Assembly: GCA_964016885.1 (NCBI GenBank)
Contig: CAXHJY010000236.1
Coordinates: forward strand, 1 to 42,470
Length of the DNA stretch: 42,470 bases
Source: Eledone cirrhosa
Taxonomy: Eukaryota
Reading direction: 5' to 3'
In this document: positions 13,871 through 38,662 of the stretch, piece after piece
Numbering within the stretch: position 1 is the first letter of the stretch
How the letters are laid out: each line of letters opens with the position of its first letter
Translations under genes and position numbers: made by a program
The notes under the pieces: generated by a model
Database searches by the model: none
What the model saw: the letters and a program-made list of their open reading frames with translations, nothing else
What the model was told of the DNA's origin: nothing

Positions 13871-16800
13871 TTAATTGTAAGTTGGGATGTTGCTTTTCAA
13901 CTCATGTTTTCTATTTAATTTTGGTTGTAATTTTTTTATGTTTATTGCCTCTGTGATTTGTCTAAACATTGCGTCTTTTCTGTGTGTAGATTCTATTTTT
14001 ATTTCTATGTCCTCTAATTTACCCTTATGTTCTATTTTAGCATGTTGGGAGAGTACAGATGATTCTTTACTATCTTGAAGGTCTCGCCAGTGTTCATTTA
14101 TCCGTTCCCCTACACTACGTGCTGTCTCACCTATGTACACTATATTTTTGTCTCTACATTGTCCTTCAGTACATCTTATGCTATATACTACATTTCTAGT
14201 TTTACAGTTAATTTAAAGGTTATACATTTCTTATCTATACAGGGGTGTCTTTGAAAAGGGTATGTCTTGCTAATAACTGTTTTTACGGAGGTACCTGGTC
14301 TTTCTACTATCTTAATATTGAGTTTATATTTATCTAGGGCCCTTCTAAATTTGTAAGCTAATTCACTTCTAGGGGTTGTATCGATGAACATTACACTCTG
14401 GTATTTATTGCTATCATACCATGAGTTTATTCTATTAGCCTTATTCCTAGTTCTTTCTATTCTATTCCAAAATTTGCTCCTATGCAAGGGGCAGGTCCCA
14501 TTTGTGTCATTATTTACCGTTTTTTTCCATTTGGTTCTGGCTCCTCTATACACTCTGATTTTATCTCTCTGATTGTAACCAGAGAACTGCATACGGTGGA
14601 TGAAGTGTTGTATGTGTCTCTCTAGTTCTTCGGGGTTGCACATGCGGGATACGTTTCTCATCACCCGTACCAAATACGCAATCAGTATGTTGATTTTGGT
14701 ATGGTCCGAAACAGCTGAGTTTCGGTGGATCAGATATTTGGAAGTCATGGGTTTTTGCATAATGGGAATGGAGGATTTGTTTTTTGTTATTAATGGTATC
14801 TAACTAGATCTATGTGTCTAGTACAGGTAATCGATGGTTGGGGTGTTTACTTGGGTAGTCTATAGTAACTCTAATACACTGGTGGATTGAGTTAGCTATT
14901 TGCTGGATGCTTTCCATTCTGTTTTTCCCTAATTCCTGACTGTTCTCTAGTGGGGGTGTTTTAACTACGATGTTTATATCATCAACGTAGCGGGAGTACA
15001 TTATCAGGGTTAAGGGGTCTTCTAATTGTTCTTTAAGTTTAAGTTTAAGTCTACTGTCCCACCATACCATGAATAAGTTAGCTATGTCGCCTGCAATGCT
15101 AACACCAATGGCTGCTCCTATCCTCTTGGGCATATGTTTTTCCATTAAATTTGAACATATGTTCCTTAAGGGTTAATTTTATGCTGGCCCCCACCGCATG
15201 TGCAATCATTTTCTTTAGTTCATCGTGGTTTTCGGGTGTCCGTATGACTCTGGTCCACCCGTTCCATCTATCTGTGTGGGTTTTCTTGGCCATTGAGGTA
15301 ATGGTAGGTGGTCTGCCTCTTGCTGGTTTTGTTGCTAAGGTCATATGTGTCTAGGTAATTATTACTATAGGTAAGTTTAAGTAGGAGTCCCAGCTCACTG
15401 GTATCAATCCCACTTGAACTCAACATTGCTCTCACTGATCATTTCTACGCATTTCTCCACATCAAAATCCACGTCAATAGATGGATACAGGGACACAACA
15501 TCCATACTACCTATTATGCAGTTTGTTAGGTCCCTAGATCGGTTACTCTCGTCGATTCTGCTGAGGAGGTCCTCCGTGCTGTCACATACATCTGGGGACA
15601 TTTCAATGATGGGCGTATGATCAGGGAGAGGAAGTAGGACAGTCTGTAATTACTAGCAATGTTAGCTCCACAGACTGGCCGTGTTGGTGGTCCTGTGACA
15701 GGGTCACTGCCCGTTTTATGGTCTTTTCGAAGCCCATACAACTCTGGCACGTCATTGTTGCAGGCCTGGAAGTTGTTGACAGTCCTTTTGTTGGGCTGCA
15801 TTATATTTGTCCACATCACCATATGGGCAGTGAGGGCTTTTTCTCTATCCTCATGCTCTTGTGGTGTAACTTCTCTTGTGTTAGTGATGTGGGGTTGCAT
15901 TGCCTGGATGTAGTTTGGCAGACTGTCAACCGACATTCTGCCAGACTTGTCTGTTGGAAAGCATGCTATCTCTCCATTACGCGAGCGCTACATGAGCTTA
16001 CGCAAGCCATTTGCAGATTGTTCTCCCAGTTGATGGGCCTCTATTCTATTATGCTTCATGCTATACTGTTCTATAATATTTCTAAGTTTAGATCTAGCTA
16101 TACTAAATTGTGCTTCTGTTTGTTCATCGTCCTGCGACGGCAATTGCGTGCGTTTGTTAAAAGGTAAAGTCGTGGCGTGGATTCGTCGCAGGTCGAACGA
16201 CTTACCGGAGGGATTATAAAAAGTAGAGTTCCAGGCTGCTGCTTTATGTGTACTAGTGCTATTGTTATTGTTAGTTGTGTTGTTTCTATTTCTATTTCCA
16301 CCAACAGCCTCATGGTTGTTTCTATGACTCTCATTATTACTCCTGTCTCTTTCCTCTGGCTCATTGTTATTATCCACTCTATTTTGTGTGTCTGTGTGTT
16401 CATCTTGGTTATTTTCTCGGTCCATAATCTCTCTTCTCCTTCCAATCCTATTACCTTCCCTTATTTCTGTGCTACTGCCATTACCTGTTTTCTGTGTCTG
16501 TGTGTCTGTTAAGATTGTGGTGGTGGTGAGAGGCATTGAATGTGTGTGTGTTGTTGTTGTTGTTGTTGATGTGTGCTGTTGTTGATGTGTGTTGTTGTTG
16601 TTGTCTCCGTACGTGTTATTATTGTTGTGTGTGTTGTTATTGTTGTTTGTGTCTGTGTGTCTGTTGTTTTGGGGATGTGTGTTGTATATGTCTGTGCGTA
16701 TGTTGTTACTTTTGTTTTTGTTTTTGTTTTTGAGGCTCCAACGTAATTTTGTAAATGATTTTTCTATTTCTGACAAACAACTAATCATATTTACCTTCTT

Positions 16801-17484
16801 GAATGTCGCATACTTAGGTCGCAGTTGTAATACAGATAATTCATCAGAGTCGACCATAGCGTTGCTGCATATATTTGTGTTGTTGTTGTTGAACTCATCA
16901 GTTAATGAGATGTCGGCCATATTTATACCGTCAATTTTGTCGGGATATCTATTGGTATTCTCTAAAGTATCTTGATTTAGTTTTATCTGATTAAGCCACT
17001 TTAGTTTCTTGTTAAAGTGCTTATCACATTCATGAACAATGTACTGTTCCTCAGGACGTATAAGGCTTATAAATATTAGGTTTTCCCTTTGTGTGGTGAT
17101 CTTAGTTATTTCTTGTATTAGGTTACGCTTATGTTTTTCTTGATGACTTAATTCTCTATAGATCTTTTTTATGTTTAGAATTGGTGCTCGTTTTACCCTA
17201 TCTGCTTGCTTTTTGGTGAGTTGTAATCTTCTTGCATCGGTGTTGATGGTGTTGGTGTAAACTCGGGACGAGGCACATTATTTTATGAAGTGTAGTTGTC
17301 GAGATGTTATTGTTTTTCGTAGATAACAGAACATGGTGGTTTTCAGTATATTGTTAGCCTGGCTAAGGCTTACGATATTTCGTTTCTGAATTTGTTTAGC
17401 AAGATACTTTATTTGAAAACGTGTGTTGAAACCGATATTGTTATACTTTGGGAGGGTCATGTTGCCAATAAGAAACACACGCAC
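13871..17484 (-). pseudogene. PLE RT + GIY-YIG polyprotein, multiply frameshifted
   Basis: VLQLRPKYA, LYGLRKDHK, PPTRPVCGA, IGSMDVVSLYPSID, GAAIGVSIAG, YSRYVDD, LPVLD, KPM, SGY, KIVERPG, NVVYSIRC..YIGETARS..ER..EH. Confidence 0.92.
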
Positions 17485-19141
17485 CAGTTGCTTTCACTTC
17501 AATTTATTATAATAAATTTATAAATTTAGGAATTTATAAATTTCCGGTTGGTTGGTTGGTTCCACAATCAGATGGTTGTTTATATATTGTCAAAGTTCTT
17601 TCGTCACACACTCTGTGACCTCTTCAGTGACTGGGGATTCTTTTCTTTGTTTTTGTGCCTCTCCTTTGTTCTGTCCTACGCCATCTTGTATATGTGTGTG
17701 TGTTGTGTGCTCAGTCTGCGCATGCGCCACATCCGGGTGTCTGTGTGTGTTTATATTCGTTTATTTATTTATTTATTTACATGTTACAGTTTGTTTATTT
17801 GTTCTATGTGCGTGTGTGTTTTCATGTTGTCCTTAATTGTTAGTTGTGATGTTGCTGTTCCACTCAAGTTTTCTATTTAATGTTGGTTGTAATTCTTTTA
17901 TGTTTATTGCCTCTGTGATTTGTCTAAACATTGCGTCTTTTGTGTGTTTAGATTCTATTTTTATTTCTATGTTCCCTAATTTACCCTTATGTTTTAGCAT
18001 GTTGGTAGAGTACAGATGATTCTTTACTATCTTGAAGGTCTCGCCAGTGTTCATTTATCCGTTCCCCTACACTACGAGCTGTCTCACCTATGTACACTAT
18101 ATTTTTGTCTCTACATTGTCCTTCAGTACATCTTATGCTATATACTACATTTCTAGTTTTACAGTTAATATCATGGTATGATAGCAATAAATACCAGAGT
18201 GTAATGTTCATCGATACAACCCCTAGAGGTTAATTAGCTTACAAATTTAGAAGGGCCCTAGATAAACATAAACTCAATATTAAGATAGTAGAAAGACCAG
18301 GTACCTCCGTAAAAACACTTATTAGCAAGACATACCCTTTTCAAAGACCCCCCTGTATAGATGAGAAATGTATAACCTGTAAATTAAGCCCCCATATTAA
18401 CTGTAAAACTAGAAATGTAGTATATAGCATAAGATGTACTGAAGAACAATGTAGAGATAAAAATATAGTGTACATAGGTGAGACAGCTCGTAGTGTAGGG
18501 GAACGGATAAATGAATACTGGCAAGACCTTCAAGATAGTAAAGAATCATCTGTACTCTACCAACATGCTAAAATAGAACATAAGGGTAAATTAGAGAACA
18601 TAGAAATAAAAATAAAATCTACACACAGACGCAATGTTTAGACAAATCACAGAGGCAATAAACATAAAAGAATTACAACCAAAATTAAATAGAAAACATG
18701 AGTGGAAAAGCAACATCCCAACTTACAATTAAGGACAAAATGAAAACACACACGCACATAGAACAAACAACCAACCTGTAACATGTAAATAAACAAATAA
18801 ATAAATAAACGAATATAAACACACACAGACACCCGGATGTGGCGCATGCGCAGACGGAGCACACAACACACACATAGAAACAAAATGGTGTAGGACAGAA
18901 CAAAGGAGAGGCACAAAAACAAAGAAAAGAATCCCCAGTCACTGAAGAGGTCACAGAATGTGTGACGAAATAACTTTGACAATATATAAACAACCACCCG
19001 GTTGTGGAACCAACCAACCAACCGGAAATTTATAAATTCCTCAATTTATAAATTTATTATAATAAATTGAAGTGAAAGCAACTGGTGCGTGTATTTCTTA
19101 TTGGCAACGTGACCCTCCCAAAGTATAACAATATATATTTT

Positions 19142-19193
<52 letters not shown>

Positions 19194-19221
19194 TAGATAT
19201 ATATATATATATAAATATATA

Positions 19222-19294
<73 letters not shown>

Positions 19295-19296
<2 letters not shown>

Positions 19297-20368
19297 TGAA
19301 ACAAAATGAAAACGAAATTTCATTTCTCACTCTTAGTATGGCACTTACTTAAATGTAATATATATATATATCTAGATTACTGATATATTAGATTACTGAA
19401 GCTACCTTATACCTTCTTAAAAATACATTTTATAATTATTGTCTTTTTGCTTATATATTTTCTTATCATTTTCTTTAATCTTGCCCAACTTGATAAGCTC
19501 TTTGAATTGCTCCCTAATTAAATTACTTAAATTACTTAAATTATTTTATCTATTATACCTAAGTTGTATCTGTTGAAGCAGCCCTTTGAAAATTCCTCGG
19601 ATATCCCAAATCCCGTAATTTTTAACTTTTAATTTATAATTTTCCTCAATTCGTTTTTATATATATCCTTAAAGGCTCTCTAAAATTTTAATTCTTCGAA
19701 GGGTGTCTCGGAAGAGGTTCTTATTATAAATATTAAAGGGGCCTTTTCTGGGGGAATTTTTGAAGGCTTTTTGAATTAACCTTTAATTGATTAGTTTCTT
19801 TCAACTTAGTAGGGATTATCAAAACTTCGTAAATTTTCTGAAATTTTTTAACGTGATCTCTGGGGAAGAAAATTTTTTTCTTTCGAAAAAACTTTTTTTC
19901 TCTCGAAGCAATTTTTTAGGAAACTTTATATTTTTTTTTTTTTTTTTTTAGTCTCTTAATCTCTTCTGGTTTGTTAGGTTTATTGAGGGATTTTTTAAGG
20001 TGCTTCTACGGGATCCCGACTCTTTTACTTTTAATGCGTAAATTATAAATTATCTAATTTTTAACCTTCAATCCCTGACTCTTAGGCCCTTTTCAAATTC
20101 TCTTAACTCCCCATAACCCATCCCTTTTACAATTCCTACATCTAATAAAAAAGAGCCCCCTTAGAATATAGACCTCAAATATACAAGCGGAGCTGCTGAT
20201 GTATACCACAATTTCAAACTGCTAATCTTGAGTGAAACGTTGATGTAAATAATGAACTTACAATCACGTTATATGCCTTGAAAAGTCCCACCATATGGTC
20301 GGACGAAACATCTGTCGGCAATAAACTTGTTATAATGTCATAATAGTTCCTTTGTCCTTTTTCATTAA
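19295..20368 (+). mobile_element. Non-coding 3' end of another HHR-bearing (PLE-type) element
   Basis: AT-rich, no ORF, ends with HHR + AATAAA then (TA)n. Confidence 0.6.
20274..20320 (+). ncRNA. Type I HHR (U3:A8 core)
   Basis: TGCC-TTGAAAA-GTCC(c)ACCA(ta)TGGT(c)GGAC-GAAA-CA(tc)TG-TC-GGCA. Confidence 0.88.
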
Positions 20369-20386
20369 TATATATATCTATATATT

Positions 20387-20513
<127 letters not shown>

Positions 20514-20643
20514 ATATGTATATATTTATATATATATTTATATATATATATATTTACATATATATATATTTATATAAATATATATGTATTTATATATATA
20601 GATATAAATTTATATATATATATTTATATATATATATTTATAT

Positions 20644-20708
<65 letters not shown>

Positions 20709-20751
20709 TATATATATTTATATAAATATATATATATATATAAATATATAT

Positions 20752-20808
<57 letters not shown>

Positions 20809-20872
20809 TAGATATATATAAATATATGTATATATATATAAATATAGATATTTGTAAATATATATATATATA

Positions 20873-23800
20873 TAAATATAGTAGAATAATCGAGTATCGA
20901 AAAATCGGCGCACGAGTTCACGATAAACAAAATTCGACATGAGTGGCAGAGGGCTCAATAATTCAGATAAATCAGAGCTATAACTATCGTTAAAATACCA
21001 ACACACATAGATTATGTCTAAAATCAACCATACGACCGAAAAATTACGATCAGGAAGATTCGGGTCACACAGATAAAATATCAATAAATCAATAAATCAT
21101 GTGAATGTAAAAAGCTTACCCGGACCCACTAGAAAGATGGTAAATCTAGCTTCTTGGGTTTCTGTAAATCCTTAAACCGCCCACTATCAGCCCACATAAA
21201 AATATATAAGACTTCTAGAGAGCGGCGGACAGGAAATACTTTATCAACGAGCTTTGTCCAGACGAATAAAAAAGCCAACCCTAGCTGAAAACGCACATGG
21301 AATCCAGCAAGGGAGATAACCTCTATATCCGCGAAAAATATTCGGGAATGTGGAAAATCACATATCGAATAAGAGTGCTCAATAGACATGTTAAAATAAA
21401 CAGGAGCTATTCATCATTTAATAGAATCGACAAAAAATGAACAATAAAATTAACTGGTCAATAGCTAAGTCTAGAGCTAAATATAGTAGAATAATCGAGT
21501 ATCGAAAAATCGGCGCACGAGTTCACGATAAACAAAATTCGACATGAGTGGCAGAGGGCTCAATAATTCAGATAAATCAGAGCTATAACTATCGTTAAAA
21601 TACCAACACACATAGATTATGTCTAAAATCAACCATACGACCGAAAAATTACGATCAGGAAGATTCGGGTCACTCAGATAAAATATCAATAAATCAATAA
21701 ATCATGTGAATGTAAAAAGCTTACCCGGACCCACTAGAAAGATGGTAAATCTAGCTTCTTGGGTTTCTGTAAATCCTTAAACCGCCCACTATCAGCCCAC
21801 ATAAAAATATATAAGACTTCTAGAGAGCAGCGGACAGGAAATACTTTATCAACGAGCTTTGTCCAGACGAATAAAAAAGCCAACCCTAGCTGAAAACGCA
21901 CATGGAATCCAGCAAGGGAGATAACCTCTATATCCGCGAAAAATATTCGGGAATGTGGAAAATCACATATCGAATAAGAGTGCTCAATAGACATGTTAAA
22001 ATAAACAGGAGCTATTCATCATTTAATAGAATCGACAAAAAATGAACAATAAAATTAACTGGTCAATAGCTAAGTCTAGAGCTAAATATAGTAGAATAAT
22101 CGAGTATCGAAAAATCGGCGCACGAGTTCACGATAAACAAAATTCGACATGAGTGGCAGAGGGCTCAATAATTCAGATAAATCAGAGCTATAACTATCGT
22201 TAAAATACCAATACACATAGATTATGTCTAAAATCAACCATACGACCGATAAATTACGATCAGGAAGATTCGGGTCACACAGATAAAATATCAATAAATC
22301 AATAAATCATGTGAATGTAAAAAGCTTACCCGGACCCACTAGAAAGATGGTAAATCTAGCTTCTTGGGTTTCTGTAAATCCTTAAACCGCCCACTATCAG
22401 CCCACATAAAAATATATAAGACTTCTAGAGAGCGGCGGACAGGAAATACTTTATCAACGAGCTTTGTCCAGACGAATAGAAAAGCCAACCCTAGCTGAAA
22501 ACGCACATGGAATCCAGCAAGGGAGATAACCTCTATATCCGCGAAAAATATTCGGGAATGTGGAAAATCACATATCGAATAAGAGTGCTCAATAGACATG
22601 TTAAAATAAACAGGAGCTATTCATCATTTAATAGAATCGACAAAAAATGAACAATAAAATTAACTGGTCAATAGCTAAGTCTAGAGCTAAATATAGTAGA
22701 ATAATCGAGTATCGAAAAATCGGCGCACGAGTTCACGATAAACAAAATTCGACATGAGTGGCAGAGGGCTCAATAATTCAGATAAATCAGAGCTATAACT
22801 ATCGTTAAAATACCAACACACATAGATTATGTCTAAAATCAACCATACGACCGAAAAATTACGATCAGGAAGATTCGGGTCACTCAGATAAAATATCAAT
22901 AAATCAATAAATCATGTGAATGTAAAAAGCTTACCCGGACCCACTAGAAAGATGGTAAATCTAGCTTCTTGGGTTTCTGTAAATCCTTAAACCGCCCACT
23001 ATCAGCCCACATAAAAATATATAAGACTTCTAGAGAGCGGCGGACAGGAAATACTTTATCAACGAGCTTTGTCCAGACGAATAAAAAAGCCAACCCTAGC
23101 TGAAAACGCACATGGAATCCAGCAAGGGAGATAACCTCTATATCCGCGAAAAATATTCGGGAATGTGGAAAATCACATATCGAATAAGAGTGCTCAATAG
23201 ACATGTTAAAATAAACAGGAGCTATTCATCATTTAATAGAATCGACAAAAAATGAACAATAAAATTAACTGGTCAATAGCTAAGTCTAGAGCTAAATATA
23301 GTAGAATAATCGAGTATCGAAAAATCGGCGCACGAGTTCACGATAAACAAAATTCGACATGAGTGGCAGAGGGCTCAATAATTCAGATAAATCAGAGCTA
23401 TAACTATCGTTAAAATACCAACACACATAGATTATGTCTAAAATCAACCATACGACCGATAAATTACGATCAGGAAGATTCGGGTCACTCAGATAAAATA
23501 TCAATAAATCAATAAATCATGTGAATGTAAAAAGCTTACCCGGACCCACTAGAAAGATGGTAAATCTAGCTTCTTGGGTTTCTGTAAATCCTTAAACCGC
23601 CCACTATCAGCCCACATAAAAATATATAAGACTTCTAGAGAGCGGCGGACAGGAAATACTTTATCAACGAGCTTTGTCCAGACGAATAAAAAAGCCAACC
23701 CTAGCTGAAAACGCACATGGAATCCAGCAAGGGAGATAACCTCTATATCCGCGAAAAATATTCGGGAATGTGGAAAATCACATATCGAATAAGAGTGCTC

Positions 23801-26800
23801 AATAGACATGTTAAAATAAACAGGAGCTATTCATCATTTAATAGAATCGACAAAAAATGAACAATAAAATTAACTGGTCAATAGCTAAGTCTAGAGCTAA
23901 ATATAGTAGAATAATCGAGTATCGAAAAATCGGCGCACGAGTTCGCGATAAACAAAATTCGACATGAGTGGCAGAGGGCTCAATAATTCAGATAAATCAG
24001 AGCTATAACTATCGTTAAAATACCAACACACATAGATTATGTCTAAAATCAACCATACGACCGAAAAATTACGATCAGGAAGATTCGGGTCACTCAGATA
24101 AAATATCAATAAATCAATAAATCATGTGAATGTAAAAAGCTTACCCGGACCCACTAGAAAGATGGTAAATCTAGCTTCTTGGGTTTCTGTAAATCCTTAA
24201 ACCGCCCACTATCAGCCCACATAAAAATATATAAGACTTCTAGAGAGCGGCGGACAGGAAATACTTTATCAACGAGCTTTGTCCAGACGAATAAAAAAGC
24301 CAACCCTAGCTGAAAACGCACATGGAATCCAGCAAGGGAGATAACCTCTATATCCGCGAAAAATATTCGGGAATGTGGAAAATCACATATCGAATAAGAG
24401 TGCTCAATAGACATGTTAAAATAAACAGGAGCTATTCATCATTTAATAGAATCGACAAAAAATGAACAATAAAATTAACTGGTCAATAGCTAAGTCTAGA
24501 GCTAAATATAGTAGAATAATCGAGTATCGAAAAATCGGCGCACGAGTTCGCGATAAACAAAATTCGACATGAGTGGCAGAGGGCTCAATAATTCAGATAA
24601 ATCAGAGCTATAACTATCGTTAAAATACCAACACACATAGATTATGTCTAAAATCAACCATACGACCGACAAATTACGATCAGGAAGATTCGGGTCACAC
24701 AGATAAAATATCAATAAATCAATAAATCATGTGAATGTAAAAAGCTTACCCGGACCCACTAGAAAGATGGTAAATCTAGCTTCTTGGGTTTCTGTAAATC
24801 CTTAAACCGCCCACTATCAGCCCACATAAAAATATATAAGACTTCTAGAGAGCGGCGGACAGGAAATACTTTATCAACGAGCTTTGTCCAGACGAATAAA
24901 AAAGCCAACCCTAGCTGAAAACGCACATGGAATCCAGCAAGGGAGATAACCTCTATATCCGCGAAAAATATTCGGGAATGTGGAAAATCACATATCGAAT
25001 AAGAGTGCTCAATAGACATGTTAAAATAAACAGGAGCTATTCATCATTTAATAGAATCGACAAAAAATGAACAATAAAATTAACTGGTCAATAGCTAAGT
25101 CTAGAGCTAAATATAGTAGAATAATCGAGTATCGAAAAATCGGCGCACGAGTTCGCGATAAACAAAATTCGACATGAGTGGCAGAGGGCTCAATAATTCA
25201 GATAAATCAGAGCTATAACTATCGTTAAAATACCAACACACATAGATTATGTCTAAAATCAACCATACGACCGACAAATTACGATCAGGAAGATTCGGGT
25301 CACACAGATAAAATATCAATAAATCAATAAATCATGTGAATGTAAAAAGCTTACCCGGACCCACTAGAAAGATGGTAAATCTAGCTTCTTGGGTTTCTGT
25401 AAATCCTTAAACCGCCCACTATCAGCCCACATAAAAATATATAAGACTTCTAGAGAGCGGCGGACAGGAAATACTTTATCAACGAGCTTTGTCCAGACGA
25501 ATAAAAAAGCCAACCCTAGCTGAAAACGCACATGGAATCCAGCAAGGGAGATAACCTCTATATCCGCGAAAAATATTCGGGAATGTGGAAAATCACATAT
25601 CGAATAAGAGTGCTCAATAGACATGTTAAAATAAACAGGAGCTATTCATCATTTAATAGAATCGACAAAAAATGAACAATAAAATTAACTGGTCAATAGC
25701 TAAGTCTAGAGCTAAATATAGTAGAATAATCGAGTATCGAAAAATCGGCGCACGAGTTCACGATAAACAAAATTCGACATGAGTGGCAGAGGGCTCAATA
25801 ATTCAGATAAATCAGAGCTATAACTATCGGTAAAATACCAACACACATAGATTATGTCTAAAATCAACCATACGACCGAAAAATTACGATCAGGAAGATT
25901 CGGGTCACTCAGATAAAATATCAATAAATCAATAAATCATGTGAATGTAAAAAGCTTACCCGGACCCACTAGAAAGATGGTAAATCTAGCTTCTTGGGTT
26001 TCTCTAAATCCTTAAACCGCCCACTATCAGCCCACATAAAAATATATAAGACTTCTAGAGAGCGGCGGACAGGAAATACTTTATCAACGAGCTTTGTCCA
26101 GACGAATAAAAAAGCCAACCCTTGCTGAAAACGCACATGGAATCCAGCAAGGGAGATAACCTCTATATCCGCGAAAAATATTCGGGAATGTGGAAAATCA
26201 CATATCGAATAAGAGTGTTCAATAGACATGTTAAAATAAACAGGAGCTATTCATCATTTAATAGAATCGACAAAAAGTGAACAATAAAATTAACTGGTCA
26301 ATAGCTAAGTCTAGAGCTAAATATAGTAGAATAATCGAGTATCGAAAAATCGGCGCACGAGTTCACGATAAACAAAATTCGACATGAGTGGCAGAGGGCT
26401 CAATAATTCAGATAAATCAGAGCTATAACTATCGTTAAAATACCAACACACATAGATTATGTCTAAAATCAACCATACGACCGAAAAATTACGATCAGGA
26501 AGATTCGGGTCACTCAGATAAAATATCAATAAATCAATAAATCATGTGAATGTAAAAAGCTTAACCGGACCCACTAGAAAGATGGTAAATCTAGCTTCTT
26601 GGGTTTCTGTAAATTCTTAAACCGCCCACTATCAGCCCACATAAAAATATATAAGACTTCTAGAGAGCGGCGGACAGGAAATACTTTATCAACGAGCTTT
26701 GTCCAGACGAATAAAAAAGCCAACCCTAGCTGAAAACGCACATGGAATCCAGCAAGGGAGATAACCTCTATATCCGCGAAAAATATTCGGGAATGTGAAA

Positions 26801-28810
26801 ATTACATATCGAATAAGAGTGCTCAATAGACATGTTTAAATAAACAGGAGCTATTCATCATTTAATAGAATCGACAAAAAATGAACAATAAAATTAACTG
26901 GTCAATAGCTAAGTCTAGAGCTAAATATAGTAGAATAATCGAGTATCGAAAAATCGGCGCACGAGTTCACGATAAACAAAATTCGACATGAGTGGCAGAG
27001 GGCTCAATAATTCAGATAAATCAGAGCTATAACTATCGTTAAAATACCAACACACATAGATTATGTCTAAAATCAACCATACGACCGAAAAATTACGATC
27101 AGGAAGATTCGGGTCACTCAGATAAAATATCAATAAATCAAAAAATCATGTGAATGTAAAAAGCTTACCCGGACCCACTAGAAAGATGGTAAATCTAGCT
27201 TCTTGGGTTTCTGTAAATTCTTAAACCGCCCACTATCAGCCCACATAAAAATATATAAGACTTCTAGAGAGCGGCGGACAGGAAATACTTTATCAACGAG
27301 CTTTGTCCAGACGAATAAAAAAGCCAACCCTAGCTGAAAACGCACATGGAATCCAGCAAGGGAGATAACCTCTATATCCGCGAAAAATATTCGGGAATGT
27401 GGAAAATCACATATCGAATAAGAGTGCTCAATAGACATGTTAAAATAAACAGGAGCAATTCATCATTTAATAGAATCGACAAAAAATGAACAATAAAATT
27501 AACTGGTCAATAGCTAAGTCTAGAGCTAAATATAGTAGAATAATCGAGTATCGAAAAATCGGCGCACGAGTTCACGATAAACAAAATTCGACATGAGTGG
27601 CAGAGGGCTCAATAATTCAGATAAATCAGAGCTATAACTATCGTTAAAATACCAACACACATAGATTATGTCTAAAATCAACCATACGACCGAAAAATTA
27701 CGATCAGGAAGATTCGGGTCACTCAGATAAAATATCAATAAATCAATAAATCATGTGAATGTAAAAAGCTTACCCGGACCCACTAGAAAGATGGTAAATC
27801 TAGCTTCTTGGGTTTCTGTAAATCCTTAAACCGCCCACTATCAGCCCACATAAAAATATATAAGACTTCTAGAGAGCGGCGGACAGGAAATACTTTATCA
27901 ACGAGCTTTGTCCAGACGAATAAAAAAGCCAACCCTATCTGAAAACGCACATGGAATCCAGCAAGGGAGATAACCTCTATATCCGCGAAAAATATTCGGG
28001 AATGTGGAAAATCACATATCGAATAAGAGTGCTCAATAGACATGTTAAAATAAACAGGAGCTATTCATCATTTAATAGAATCGACAAAAAATGAACAATA
28101 AAATTAACTGGTCAATAGCTAAGTCTAGAGATAAATATAGTAGAATAATCGAGTATCGAAAAATCGGCGCACGAGTTCACGATAAACAAAATTCGACATG
28201 AGTGGCAGAGGGCTCAATAATTCAGATAAATCAGAGCTATAACTATCGTTAAAATACCAACACACATAGATTATGTCTAAAATCAACCATACGACCGAAA
28301 AATTACGATCAGGAAGATTCGGGTCACTCAGATAAAATATCAATAAATCAATAAATCATGTGAATGTAAAAAGCTTACCCGGACCCACTAGAAAGATGGT
28401 AAATCTAGCTTCTTGGGTTTCTGTAAATCCTTAAACCGCCCACTATCAGCCCACATAAAAATATATAAGACTTCTAGAGAGCGGCGGACAGGAAATACTT
28501 TATCAACGAGCTTTGTCCAGACGAATAAAAAAGCCAACCCTAGCTGAAAACGCACATGGAATCCAGCAAGGGAGATAACCTCTATATCCGCGAAAAATAT
28601 TCGGGAATGTGGAAAATCACATATCGAATAAGAGTGCTCAATAGACATGTTAAAATAAACAGGAGCTATTCATCATTTAATAGAATCGACAAAAAATGAA
28701 CAATAAAATTAACTGGTCAATAGCTAAGTCTAGAGCTAAATATAGTAGAATAATCGAGTATCGAAAAATCGGCGCACGAGTTCACGATAAACAAAATTCG
28801 ACATGAGTGG
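20873..28810 (-). repeat. Tandem array of 13 full 605-bp units plus about 70 bp; candidate retrozyme multimer
   Basis: GTAGAATAATCGAG recurs at 20881, 21486, 22091 ... 26326, then 26930 (1-bp deletion), 27535, 28140, 28745. Only a few substitutions per unit. (TA)n on both sides. One HHR per unit. Confidence 0.95.
21118..21252 (-). ncRNA. Type I HHR in the 605-bp unit (13 copies, last at 28377-28511)
   Basis: GCTCG-TTGATAA-a[GTA tt TCCT gt CCGCC...GGCGG ttta AGGA tt TAC]a-GAAA-CCCA..CTAGA..TCTAG.TGGG-TC-CGGGT. GUC triplet, predicted cut between 21123 and 21122. Confidence 0.72.
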
Positions 28811-28860
28811 TATAAATATATATAAATATATATAAATATATATAAATATATATATATATA

Positions 28861-28876
<16 letters not shown>

Positions 28877-28893
<17 letters not shown>

Positions 28894-29000
28894 TTATATG
28901 CAAAAGTTATACTTAAAATTGTTGGGTTACAACGAGTAAATATTTTATAACTGATATAAAAGCACTCAACAGTTTCTGGAGTAGGTTTACGATATTAAAC
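28877..29000 (-). repeat. Solo 3'-tail fragment of the 36353-37190 family (another at 35221-35270 +)
   Basis: Reverse complement aligns to 37090-37190. Confidence 0.8.
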
Positions 29001-29073: not shown

Positions 29074-29168
<95 letters not shown>

Positions 29169-29380
29169 TTTACGTATCGAGAAAGAGAAAAAAGGGGGGA
29201 TAGGTGATACATATAGTTATTTGCCAAGTAGCGTATGCCAAAGGTGCTCGATACTAGTGCCGGCAGTATTAAATATTCGAAGTGTTAATATTTAGTGGGC
29301 TAGAGAGTTAGCAGAGCGTAAGCACGTGGGAAAGCAAAAAATCGGAGAATAGACCGTTAAAACATGTTTATTTAAATTAT

Positions 29381-29420
29381 CACCTACGTACGTTTCGCCC
29401 AGTTGGGCTTCTCAAGGGCA
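29381..29420 (-). ncRNA. Minimal HHR (U3:A8 core) of PLE-4
   Basis: CC-TTGAGAA-GCCC(aact)GGGC-GAAA-CGTACG-TA-GG. Palindromic stem III, short stem I. Confidence 0.82.
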
Positions 29421-29710
29421 TAAATAATCACAAGTGTTCCTTATATTGCTCGGAAAATTTTTTGGTGTTAAAATCCACATCAAGGTTCATTGCTCGCAAA
29501 AATATCTTGTTTTGATTTTGCAGCAGGTCAAGGGAGGTAACTCTGGCCGGTGTTAGGGCAATCTTTCCCGGAAAAAAATTTTTTTTTTTCCGCCGCATCC
29601 GTTTGTCTGAGGCTGGGTCTGGTATGCAAGGATTATTTCCTGGGTGTTATTTTGCAGCGCCTGCCCGCCGGGGTGTTAAGACTTGTTGCAGGGAGATCCA
29701 GTGTACTATT

Positions 29711-30079
29711 TCACTCTTCATCCTTAACCCATCTGAAGAAGGATATTTTTAAGCGATGTGTTAAATTTATCGCTGTTTCAGCTCTGCTGTTGATGAGCTC
29801 GTGGGGTGCAGTTATGATGTGGTAGAGCTCCATGAGGCAAAGATCGCATTTCCTCTTGAAGTTGTACGGTGCAGCCCTGCCGACAATCTCCCAGTGCGTG
29901 GAGAAGCTGATGTTTAAGTCCTTTAGTGATGTGATGTAGTGCGCGAGCGAAGTGGAGTGCCTTAGTTTTCTATTTGTGAAAGAGTGGAGATGTGTTCGAA
30001 ACCTAATTTTGAACGGGCCGGAGGTGGCCCCTATATAATGTTTAACGCTATTGTGGCTAGTAATAGTGCATCTATAAAT
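29711..30079 (-). pseudogene. GIY-YIG endonuclease domain (no start codon; absent from the ORF track)
   Basis: My translation: IYRCTITSHNSVKHYIGATSGPFKIRFRTHLHSF...STSLAHYITSLKDLNISFSTHWEIVGRAAPYNFKRKCDLCLME...LINSRAE. Confidence 0.88.
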
Positions 30080-30141: not shown

Positions 30142-30622
30142 ATATGAATGTATATATAGTGTATTTTGCAATACACTGTATGCTTAATAAAAAGAATTTT
30201 GAAGACCTTATGCTATTGTTTTAGAGTAGTCACAGACTCACTTACTTTAATTTCAGCAAACAGGGGGAGATAAAGCTGACAAGGCCTTGTTTCTGCATTA
30301 ATTTCTGCTTGACCGGCAATCGCTCTGTATAATCAGTTCCTGATTATTTACTAGAATTCTATAAGAACCAAATCATCCATGTTCTTAGCAATCGGGAGGA
30401 GTGGTTGGCTTTGATAAGCATCAATAAATGCAGAAACAAGGCCTTGTCAGCTTTATCTCCCCCTGTTTGCTGAAATTAAAGTAAGTGAGACTGTCACTAC
30501 TCTAAAACAATAGCATAAGTTCTTCAAAATGCTTTTTATTAAGCATACAGTGTATTGCAAAATACACTATATATACATTCATATATATATAGCTATTTCA
30601 GAGCAACAATTCTAATTTTTAA
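30140..30622. mobile_element. Non-coding fold-back insertion (arms about 30140-30299 / 30428-30590, plus tail)
   Basis: About 160-bp inverted arms. HHR spans the spacer/right-arm junction. Confidence 0.8.
30407..30452 (+). ncRNA. Type I HHR (U3:A8 core)
   Basis: GGCT-TTGATAA-GCAT(caataa)ATGC-a-GAAA-CAAGGCCTTG-TC-AGCT. Confidence 0.8.

Positions 30623-35489: not shown

Positions 35490-36245
<756 letters not shown>

Positions 36246-37855: not shown

Positions 37856-38662
<807 letters not shown>

Follow-up and report, generated by a model that had tools for sequence, protein, structure and literature searches.

The window analysed here, a stretch of 42,470 nt, is an entire small contig (CAXHJY010000236.1) of the 3.0 Gb genome of Eledone cirrhosa, and it holds an array of 605-bp units that are read from its minus strand. 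We propose that these units belong to a non-autonomous, retrozyme-type element that carries a slow variant of the type I hammerhead ribozyme, is copied from a start inside its RNA, and is mobilised by a Penelope-like element (PLE) that targets (TA)n; from the sequences we put the probability of this reading at about 0.55. DNA alone yields two landmarks: a fixed 3' end, which would be the start site of a reverse transcriptase (RT), and a peak of insertion 5' ends at the predicted scissile bond. Cleavage in vivo, whether slow and on linear RNAs or dominated by circles, appears likely on these grounds. Comparisons with published work refer to the available portions of the papers cited.

Each unit has the minus-strand sequence GCUCG UUGAUAA A (stem II, 76 nt) A GAAA (stem III, in two parts) UC CGGGU. 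The original prediction of a complete minus-strand type I hammerhead, with stem I, core, GAAA, stem III, a GUC triplet and a cut at 21123/21122, was borne out; the cut corresponds to unit position 362/363, and predicted cuts recur along the array after 21123, 21728 ... 28382. In unit 1 the UUGAUAA core occupies 21247-21241, and 78 nt separate it from GAAA. Core letters are identical in 13/13 units, while the stems are intact and the descriptor is matched in 11/13; a pair near the core is broken in the units at 26092 (C11.1) and 26697 (stem I), so that the claim of a hammerhead in every unit holds for the core and fails for these two stems. Stem II was rightly described as long and interrupted, though the extra A on each side of it had gone unmentioned. 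Among dinucleotide-shuffled units, 0/3000 matched the descriptor as observed, 2/3000 a loose and 6/3000 a very loose form of it, a descriptor written after the candidate had been seen. Rfam gave no hammerhead match up to E=10 in the window or in a single unit, as had been anticipated for a standard search; canonical descriptors miss this hammerhead because it is non-canonical. With a stem II of 76 nt, the usual loop 1/loop 2 tertiary contact is unlikely as such.

The description of 13 near-identical 605-bp units between (TA)n tracts also held, the terminal extra amounting to 67 bp. The array has 14 unit starts, the first at 20880, spaced by 605 bp (once 604), between tracts at 20368-20880 and 28811-28899; its predicted end at 28810 stands, whereas the predicted start at 20873 falls in an ambiguous TA junction. 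Only 20/605 columns vary, and neighbouring units have variants in common (e.g., units 6-8 and units 10-11). The unit (GC 36%) has a longest frame of 93 codons, stop to stop, and no long frame of the kind expected of an autonomous PLE (RT plus GIY-YIG endonuclease) was found in it. It is strongly folded (z -3.87, 20 shuffles). No tRNA gene was found in the window.

The units are members of a dispersed, non-coding family of about 600-625 bp. Searching the genome with the unit gave 96 matches at 95-100% identity on many large contigs, among the 40 scored of 2513 candidates. A 17-nt motif from the element's 3' end has 3,571 exact matches genome-wide (control, 1), and a 35-nt form that includes the TA junction has 1,049. 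We extracted 30 loci, of which 11 overlapped the window and two represented one insertion, leaving 18 distinct insertions outside. In 18/18 of these the same terminal base runs into (TA)n, while the 5' starts vary. Dispersed TA-flanked copies, whose search had been proposed at the outset, are thus present, and the predicted merging of the minus-strand 3' end into TA recurs in them. Most consist of a partial unit plus a full unit; one additional neighbouring piece ends elsewhere, and at five near-monomer loci the sequence 5' of the unit is TA or unrelated DNA. Partial-tandem insertions with microsatellite targets are known of PLEs (PMC8557442). An array of about 65 units of a subfamily with a U·G core lies at G000:C1:81709745-81748683.

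A 622-bp subfamily (about 72% identity) was reached through variant letters from related organisms, and further subfamilies were reached from it. Its 3' end is fixed against (TA)n at all but one of 30 loci, and all subfamilies have their 3' end in common, about 245-255 nt downstream of the predicted cut. We also compared contigs from four runs of other organisms. Two of these, X5 and X6 (organisms B and C), contain contigs with relatives of the unit, many of the pieces being less than 95% alike; the family therefore extends beyond the source genome.

To collect the 5' ends of insertions, we took the hits of the 3'-end motif searches in the order listed along contig C1. The 117 loci gave 109 rows; after removal of two edge artefacts and censoring of four open-ended rows, 103 were usable. 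Against a count of 4.0 expected from the 5'-end rate elsewhere in the unit, 27/103 ends lie 0-24 nt 3' of the predicted cut (ratio 6.7, p 4e-14), which makes this the strongest 25-nt window in the unit. In a hold-out of 20 further loci (19 usable), seven ends fell there (0.64 expected, p 5e-6), and one insertion starts exactly at the predicted cut. Allowing that BLAST-defined ends adjoining TA are uncertain by a few bases, starts occur at +1, +4, +5 and +7 from the cut, with a mode at +13 in a TACAT microhomology. The left edge of the peak matches the predicted scissile bond within 1 nt (ends at 363 and 364), and no first-pass end falls in the 33 nt beyond it (lengths 243-276). Copies that stop at the first site number 23/85, about 70% reading through, and the pile-up recurs in later passes (6/19 ends within 30 nt). 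Microhomology alone is insufficient to explain the peak, since TACAT at position 376 collects 19/109 ends while perfect TATAT collects none at 157 and two at 277-279. We infer from this footprint, indirectly, that the ribozyme cuts in the living animal; our literature search, which drew on parts of papers, found no precedent for a 5'-end footprint at a retrozyme cut site.

Subfamilies as divergent as about 72% identity retain the hammerhead fold, and each of the three stems shows compensatory changes, as hoped of the stem-covariation check. This analysis was confined to the genome because no usable sequence from the relatives in other organisms covered the ribozyme's 5' half. Given 33 copies, RNAalifold found stems I and III unaided, along with the tip of stem II; it missed the base of that stem, a gapped part of the alignment. 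For 13 core-adjacent pairs in 23 lineage representatives, 96.3% of cells are paired, compared with 16-49% in slid controls. Five of the 13 pairs change on both sides, a number reached by 1/500 shuffles (the percentage paired, by 0/500), and in five copies the CUAG/CUAG of stem IIIb is replaced by CUGG/CCAG. A far relative at L218:2400-2900 (+), seen as one copy, has compensatory changes in stems I and III and the core UUGAUAG.

The least biased view of the core comes from 58 hammerhead regions (loci L206-L315), picked by the 3'-end motif and then by profile match; two of them are neighbouring elements in flanks. GAAA is conserved in 58/58, UC in 57/58 and U4G5A6 in 56/58, whereas N7 is free (G 24, U 18, A 16). 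Positions A9, G12-A15.1 and C17 are retained as well while flanking positions drift, and variation within the core is mainly at 3, 7 and 8. This pattern of fixed and free positions is that of a hammerhead core. Pair 3:8 is U·G in 32 regions, U-A in 23, C·A in 3 and C-G in none, so that the Watson-Crick pair found as U-A in 13/13 window units is absent in 35/58 family copies; on a rough tree of 59 copies the pair has undergone 8 or more changes. Mismatches at 3:8 lower hammerhead activity. The C3G and G8C mutations do so too (PMC11167929). Genome-wide, in one sequence context, the canonical C3-G8 occurs once against 1,212 U3 copies, many of them in arrays. All 58 regions have an extra A between 11.1 and G12 and an extra base after A9 (A in 56), so stem II does not join A9 and G12 directly as in canonical hammerheads; the extra bases can alternatively be read as an A·A mismatch at 10.1-11.1. 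For the fixed A before G12 and the fixed mismatched 3:8 pairs, we found no precedent in the literature examined, coverage of which was partial. What appears to be new here is the core variant together with the 5'-end footprint at the cut site.

Taken together, dispersal, the fixed 3' end, the partial tandems, the covariation and the 5' ends piled at the cut support a hammerhead-bearing, non-coding element of retrozyme type, spread by PLE-type retrotransposition into (TA)n. To this extent the original retrozyme reading is supported, though not the novelty it attached to unit size and to the U3:A8 core. In the mechanism we propose, the minus strand of tandem copies would be transcribed as a multimer, and the hammerhead would cut some units at 362/363, leaving 5'-OH ends, as the footprint suggests. 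A PLE endonuclease would then nick (TA)n and RT would begin within the RNA, always 243 nt downstream of the cut; here the fixed end is observed and the enzyme presumed. On reaching a cut end, RT would run off and the complementary DNA (cDNA) would join the target at the nearest TA-like microhomology. The resulting copies, about 234 bp or 234 + n x 605 bp in length, would be dead ends; the insertions display this pattern. Where the site was uncut or religated, RT would read through to more-than-unit copies that regain a complete ribozyme, and a weak core would probably be favoured for that reason. Some loci would later grow into long arrays at the DNA level: the variants common to neighbouring window units suggest DNA-level expansion, or a mixed multimer template, rather than a single pass round one circle. 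Internal RT initiation downstream of a protein-assisted hammerhead has been demonstrated in vitro for the PLE PAc (PMC11167929).

In a bolder version, which we consider possible but less likely than not, the family has an undescribed hammerhead variant in which the 3-8 Watson-Crick pair is dispensable and an A is fixed before G12, and which still cuts in vivo, perhaps with help from a PLE protein. The ribozyme would be kept slow since copies able to spread again need an uncut internal site. Linear cut RNAs, and not only circles, would then serve as PLE templates, and the 5' ends of thousands of genomic copies would be a fossil read-out of ribozyme cleavage in vivo.

Several observations weigh against our proposal. 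The majority of ends are found not at the cut but 11-17 nt 3' of it, and four second-pass, more-than-unit copies (L244, L250, L285 and L290) start 6-12 nt 5' of it, possibly by a template jump onto the cut 3' end. Stop rates at the cut, assigned by nearest relative, are alike across core types (U-A 12/39, U·G 14/44, C·A 2/3) even though U·G and C·A are not Watson-Crick pairs; a non-catalytic cause would give the same rates. The covariation shuffle counts are not probabilities, because the sequences are related, and the two-sided changes in stems I and IIIa depend on the single copy L218. In a 161-nt fragment of a window copy the hammerhead lies 3.3 kcal/mol above the lowest-energy fold, and in six other copies 0-3.0 kcal/mol above it. 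Hammerhead mutants did not impair insertion in a PLE assay in vitro (PMC11167929), and 8/9 predicted Xenopus retrozymes lacked cleavage in vitro (10.64898/2026.07.22.740005). A search for the partner PLE gave no significant likeness either: the similarity to the Neptune-like 3' end at 29166 is non-significant (13/200), as is a 9-nt identity at the tandem junction (138/1000).

The strongest competing explanation, the version offered originally, to which we give a minor share of our belief, is that cleavage is efficient and yields 605-nt monomers that are ligated into circles; a PLE RT would roll round these to make more-than-unit copies and long arrays, and the short copies would derive from unligated monomers. 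Other metazoan retrozymes do form circles (PMC7229834), the unit pairs strongly with itself, there are arrays as long as 13 and about 65 units, and read-through of the first site in about 70% of copies (23/85 stop) would follow naturally. Yet the stops at the cut also occur in second and later passes, where a circle has no end. The variants common to neighbouring window units are unlike the product of one pass round a single circle, and a core that is never canonical (0/58; 1 vs 1,212) argues against efficient cutting. The data fit incompletely cleaved linear multimers at least as well as circles, which may form but are not required by the mechanism we propose.

Somewhat less probable still is that the hammerhead is a weak or dead relic fold, for instance a binding site for a PLE protein, and that the peak marks transcription starts from an internal promoter at about 363-376. 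Promoters do reside in PLE pseudo-LTRs (long terminal repeats; PMC6765202), a start in each unit would also account for the later-pass peaks, and the drift of 3:8 among U-A, U·G and C·A with similar stop rates would be expected. A promoter gives no account of a left edge that coincides with the predicted scissile bond within 1 nt, nor a relic of the retention of U4, G5, A6, A9, G12-A15.1 and C17 while the flanks drift. We found no match to an RNA polymerase III (Pol III) B-box in the array, and the U5 run directly after the site also argues against Pol III.

We consider it improbable that the template is never cut and that RT stalls at the foot of the folded hammerhead, the cDNA then joining the target at TA microhomology. 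The peak does have its mode, TACAT at 376, beside a possible extension of stem I, and the foot of stem II has an excess of its own, though a smaller one (8 ends at 308-332, 4.8 per 1000 nt at risk). Stem I, however, is weak and outside the lowest-energy fold, stronger hairpins elsewhere give rates below 12 per 1000, and first-pass ends run up to 363-364 and break off abruptly there. It is very improbable that we are dealing with an ordinary satellite in which a hammerhead-like motif arose by chance, a reading to which the two long arrays and the lack of an Rfam match might point. It is already contradicted by the 5'-end footprint, by a motif that is rare in shuffles and conserved with covariation, and by the fact that most copies are single or double units, dispersed and fixed at the 3' end.

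Table. Features of the array and of its first unit; positions are those of the window.
Feature	Position	Strand	Support
Fixed 3' end, putative internal RT start, 243 nt downstream of the cut; merges into (TA)n	20873..20905	-	
Entire insertion: partial unit of 67 bp, truncated at the 5' end, + 13 full units; partial tandem as in PLEs	20880..28810	-	
Terminal 605-bp unit, non-coding	20880..21484	-	
5' partial unit, unit positions 539-605, equivalent of pseudo-LTR	28744..28810	-	
(TA)n target tract, 3' side of element	20368..20879	.	
(TA)n target tract, 5' side of element	28811..28899	.	
25 nt directly 3' of the predicted cut, with the pile-up of dispersed-copy 5' ends	21098..21122	-	
Predicted type I hammerhead (variant) in unit 1, recurring at 605-bp intervals	21118..21252	-	covariation
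Stem I 5' strand GCUCG, pairs with CGGGU at 21122-21118	21248..21252	-	99.1% of cells paired, 23 lineage representatives
Core U3 U4 G5 A6 U7 A8 A9 + extra A (9b)	21240..21247	-	
Long interrupted stem II (76 nt), base G10.1-C11.1	21164..21239	-	two-sided changes in 3/4 basal pairs
Extra A between 11.1 and G12, then GAAA	21159..21163	-	58/58; 123/124 in another copy set
Two-part stem III (ACCC/GGGU, CUAG/CUAG) + C17	21123..21159	-	

A search for the partner PLE among 11 other TA-adjoining ends in the window gave no convincing 3'-end similarity, the best of the others being AT-rich patches. A young Neptune-like family is nevertheless a plausible helper. It targets TA, and its minimal U3:A8 hammerhead lies about 220 nt from its end. 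Of its copies, 150 matches at 95-100% were scored, in some of which a 927-codon frame is intact, and a search located 596 ends of the family. Its frame, for which Pfam gave no match, contains what we take to be RT and GIY-YIG motifs. The Neptune label rests on these, on a Cys linker motif (PMC8557442) and on 44% identity to the frame at 11601-12611 of the window. A 3' fragment of this abundant family lies at 29166-30072 (-), with its hammerhead core at 29415. A second Neptune-like PLE, with a long 3' untranslated region, occupies 10181-12611 (-); its U3:A8 hammerhead at about 10194-10285 has a stem II of ~58 nt and a full stem III and lies 17 nt from the 3' end of the element. The cores of these two elements are UUGAGAA.

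The hammerhead that the original prediction placed near 30407 (30411 in our coordinates) is real and has the same core. At 30407-30452 (+), it belongs to a second, unrelated repeat family with a period of about 321 bp (30160-30580; 2041 candidates in a genome search, 40 scored). The U3:A8 core and palindromic stem III, the extra A that again precedes GAAA, and copies that are frequently inverted and truncated at the 5' end make this family a probable second retrozyme. By hand count, 6/20 of its partial matches start 0-19 nt after its own cut, with about 3 expected, a non-significant excess. Elsewhere in the window there are a canonical-core type I hammerhead at 35715-35800 (-), with its core at 35789, 7-bp stems I and III and a 36-nt stem II, and a possible minimal hammerhead with a canonical core and a long stem II at 37945-38020 (-), core at 38013. 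Two further PLEs are frameshifted: one at 2582-4909 (+), with Pfam matches to RT and GIY-YIG, and one at 13871-17277 (-), with a Pfam match to GIY-YIG; 3' pieces of the latter recur, duplicated and inverted, at 17375-19296.

That PLEs mobilise retrozymes through circles is a model rather than a demonstration, and in one biochemical study cleavage was unnecessary for insertion in vitro (PMC11167929). The footprint bears on this open question of what hammerheads do in PLE mobilisation, and the same count of 5' ends can be applied to any retrozyme or PLE family in any assembly. The natural series of 3:8 variants in one scaffold offers a test of how far the hammerhead core can be relaxed, and large retrozyme families escape descriptor searches.

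The element displays the sequence-level features of a metazoan non-LTR retrozyme. Like those described (PMC7229834; 10.64898/2026.07.22.740005), it is made of non-coding tandem units with one type I hammerhead each, has a GC content below 50%, ranges from monomers to long arrays and co-occurs with PLEs. The 605-nt unit exceeds the circles of 170-400 nt tested in 2020 (PMC7229834), but its size, offered originally as a novelty, falls within the 51-972 bp of retrozyme consensus sequences already in print (10.64898/2026.07.22.740005). In contrast to the retrozymes of the same two papers, the 3:8 pair is never C-G in our 58 regions, an extra A precedes G12, stem II has 76 nt and stem III is long and in two parts; a fixed RT start and a 5' footprint at the cut site are not among the retrozyme features in the available portions of these sources. 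Nor is a U3:A8 core new, being known from nature (PMC4209133; PMC3088659). Covariation of U3-A8, single-base core insertions and a 10.1-11.1 mismatch all occur in natural hammerheads (PMC3088659), but the portion available, which lists A6a, U13a and 2a/2b insertions, names neither a fixed A between 11.1 and G12 nor any family with U·G or C·A fixed at 3:8.

The hammerheads of PLE pseudo-LTRs (PMC4209133) resemble ours in being type I, with U3-A8, an extra nucleotide between 9 and 10.1 and G10.1-C11.1, and in belonging to partial-tandem insertions. Theirs are minimal, active as dimers, with a tiny palindromic stem III, and reside in coding elements, whereas here stem III is full, stem II very long and the unit non-coding, 3:8 can be U·G or C·A, and G12 is preceded by an extra A; we found no homology of the unit to a PLE pseudo-LTR. 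The Poseidon element PAc of Anolis (PMC11167929) also has an RT start internal to its RNA and downstream of the hammerhead, and AT-rich targets, and its ribozyme is weak without protein. PAc differs in being autonomous and, as far as the available text goes, in that no RNA ends were found at its cut; in the family described here, genomic 5' ends pile up at that very position.

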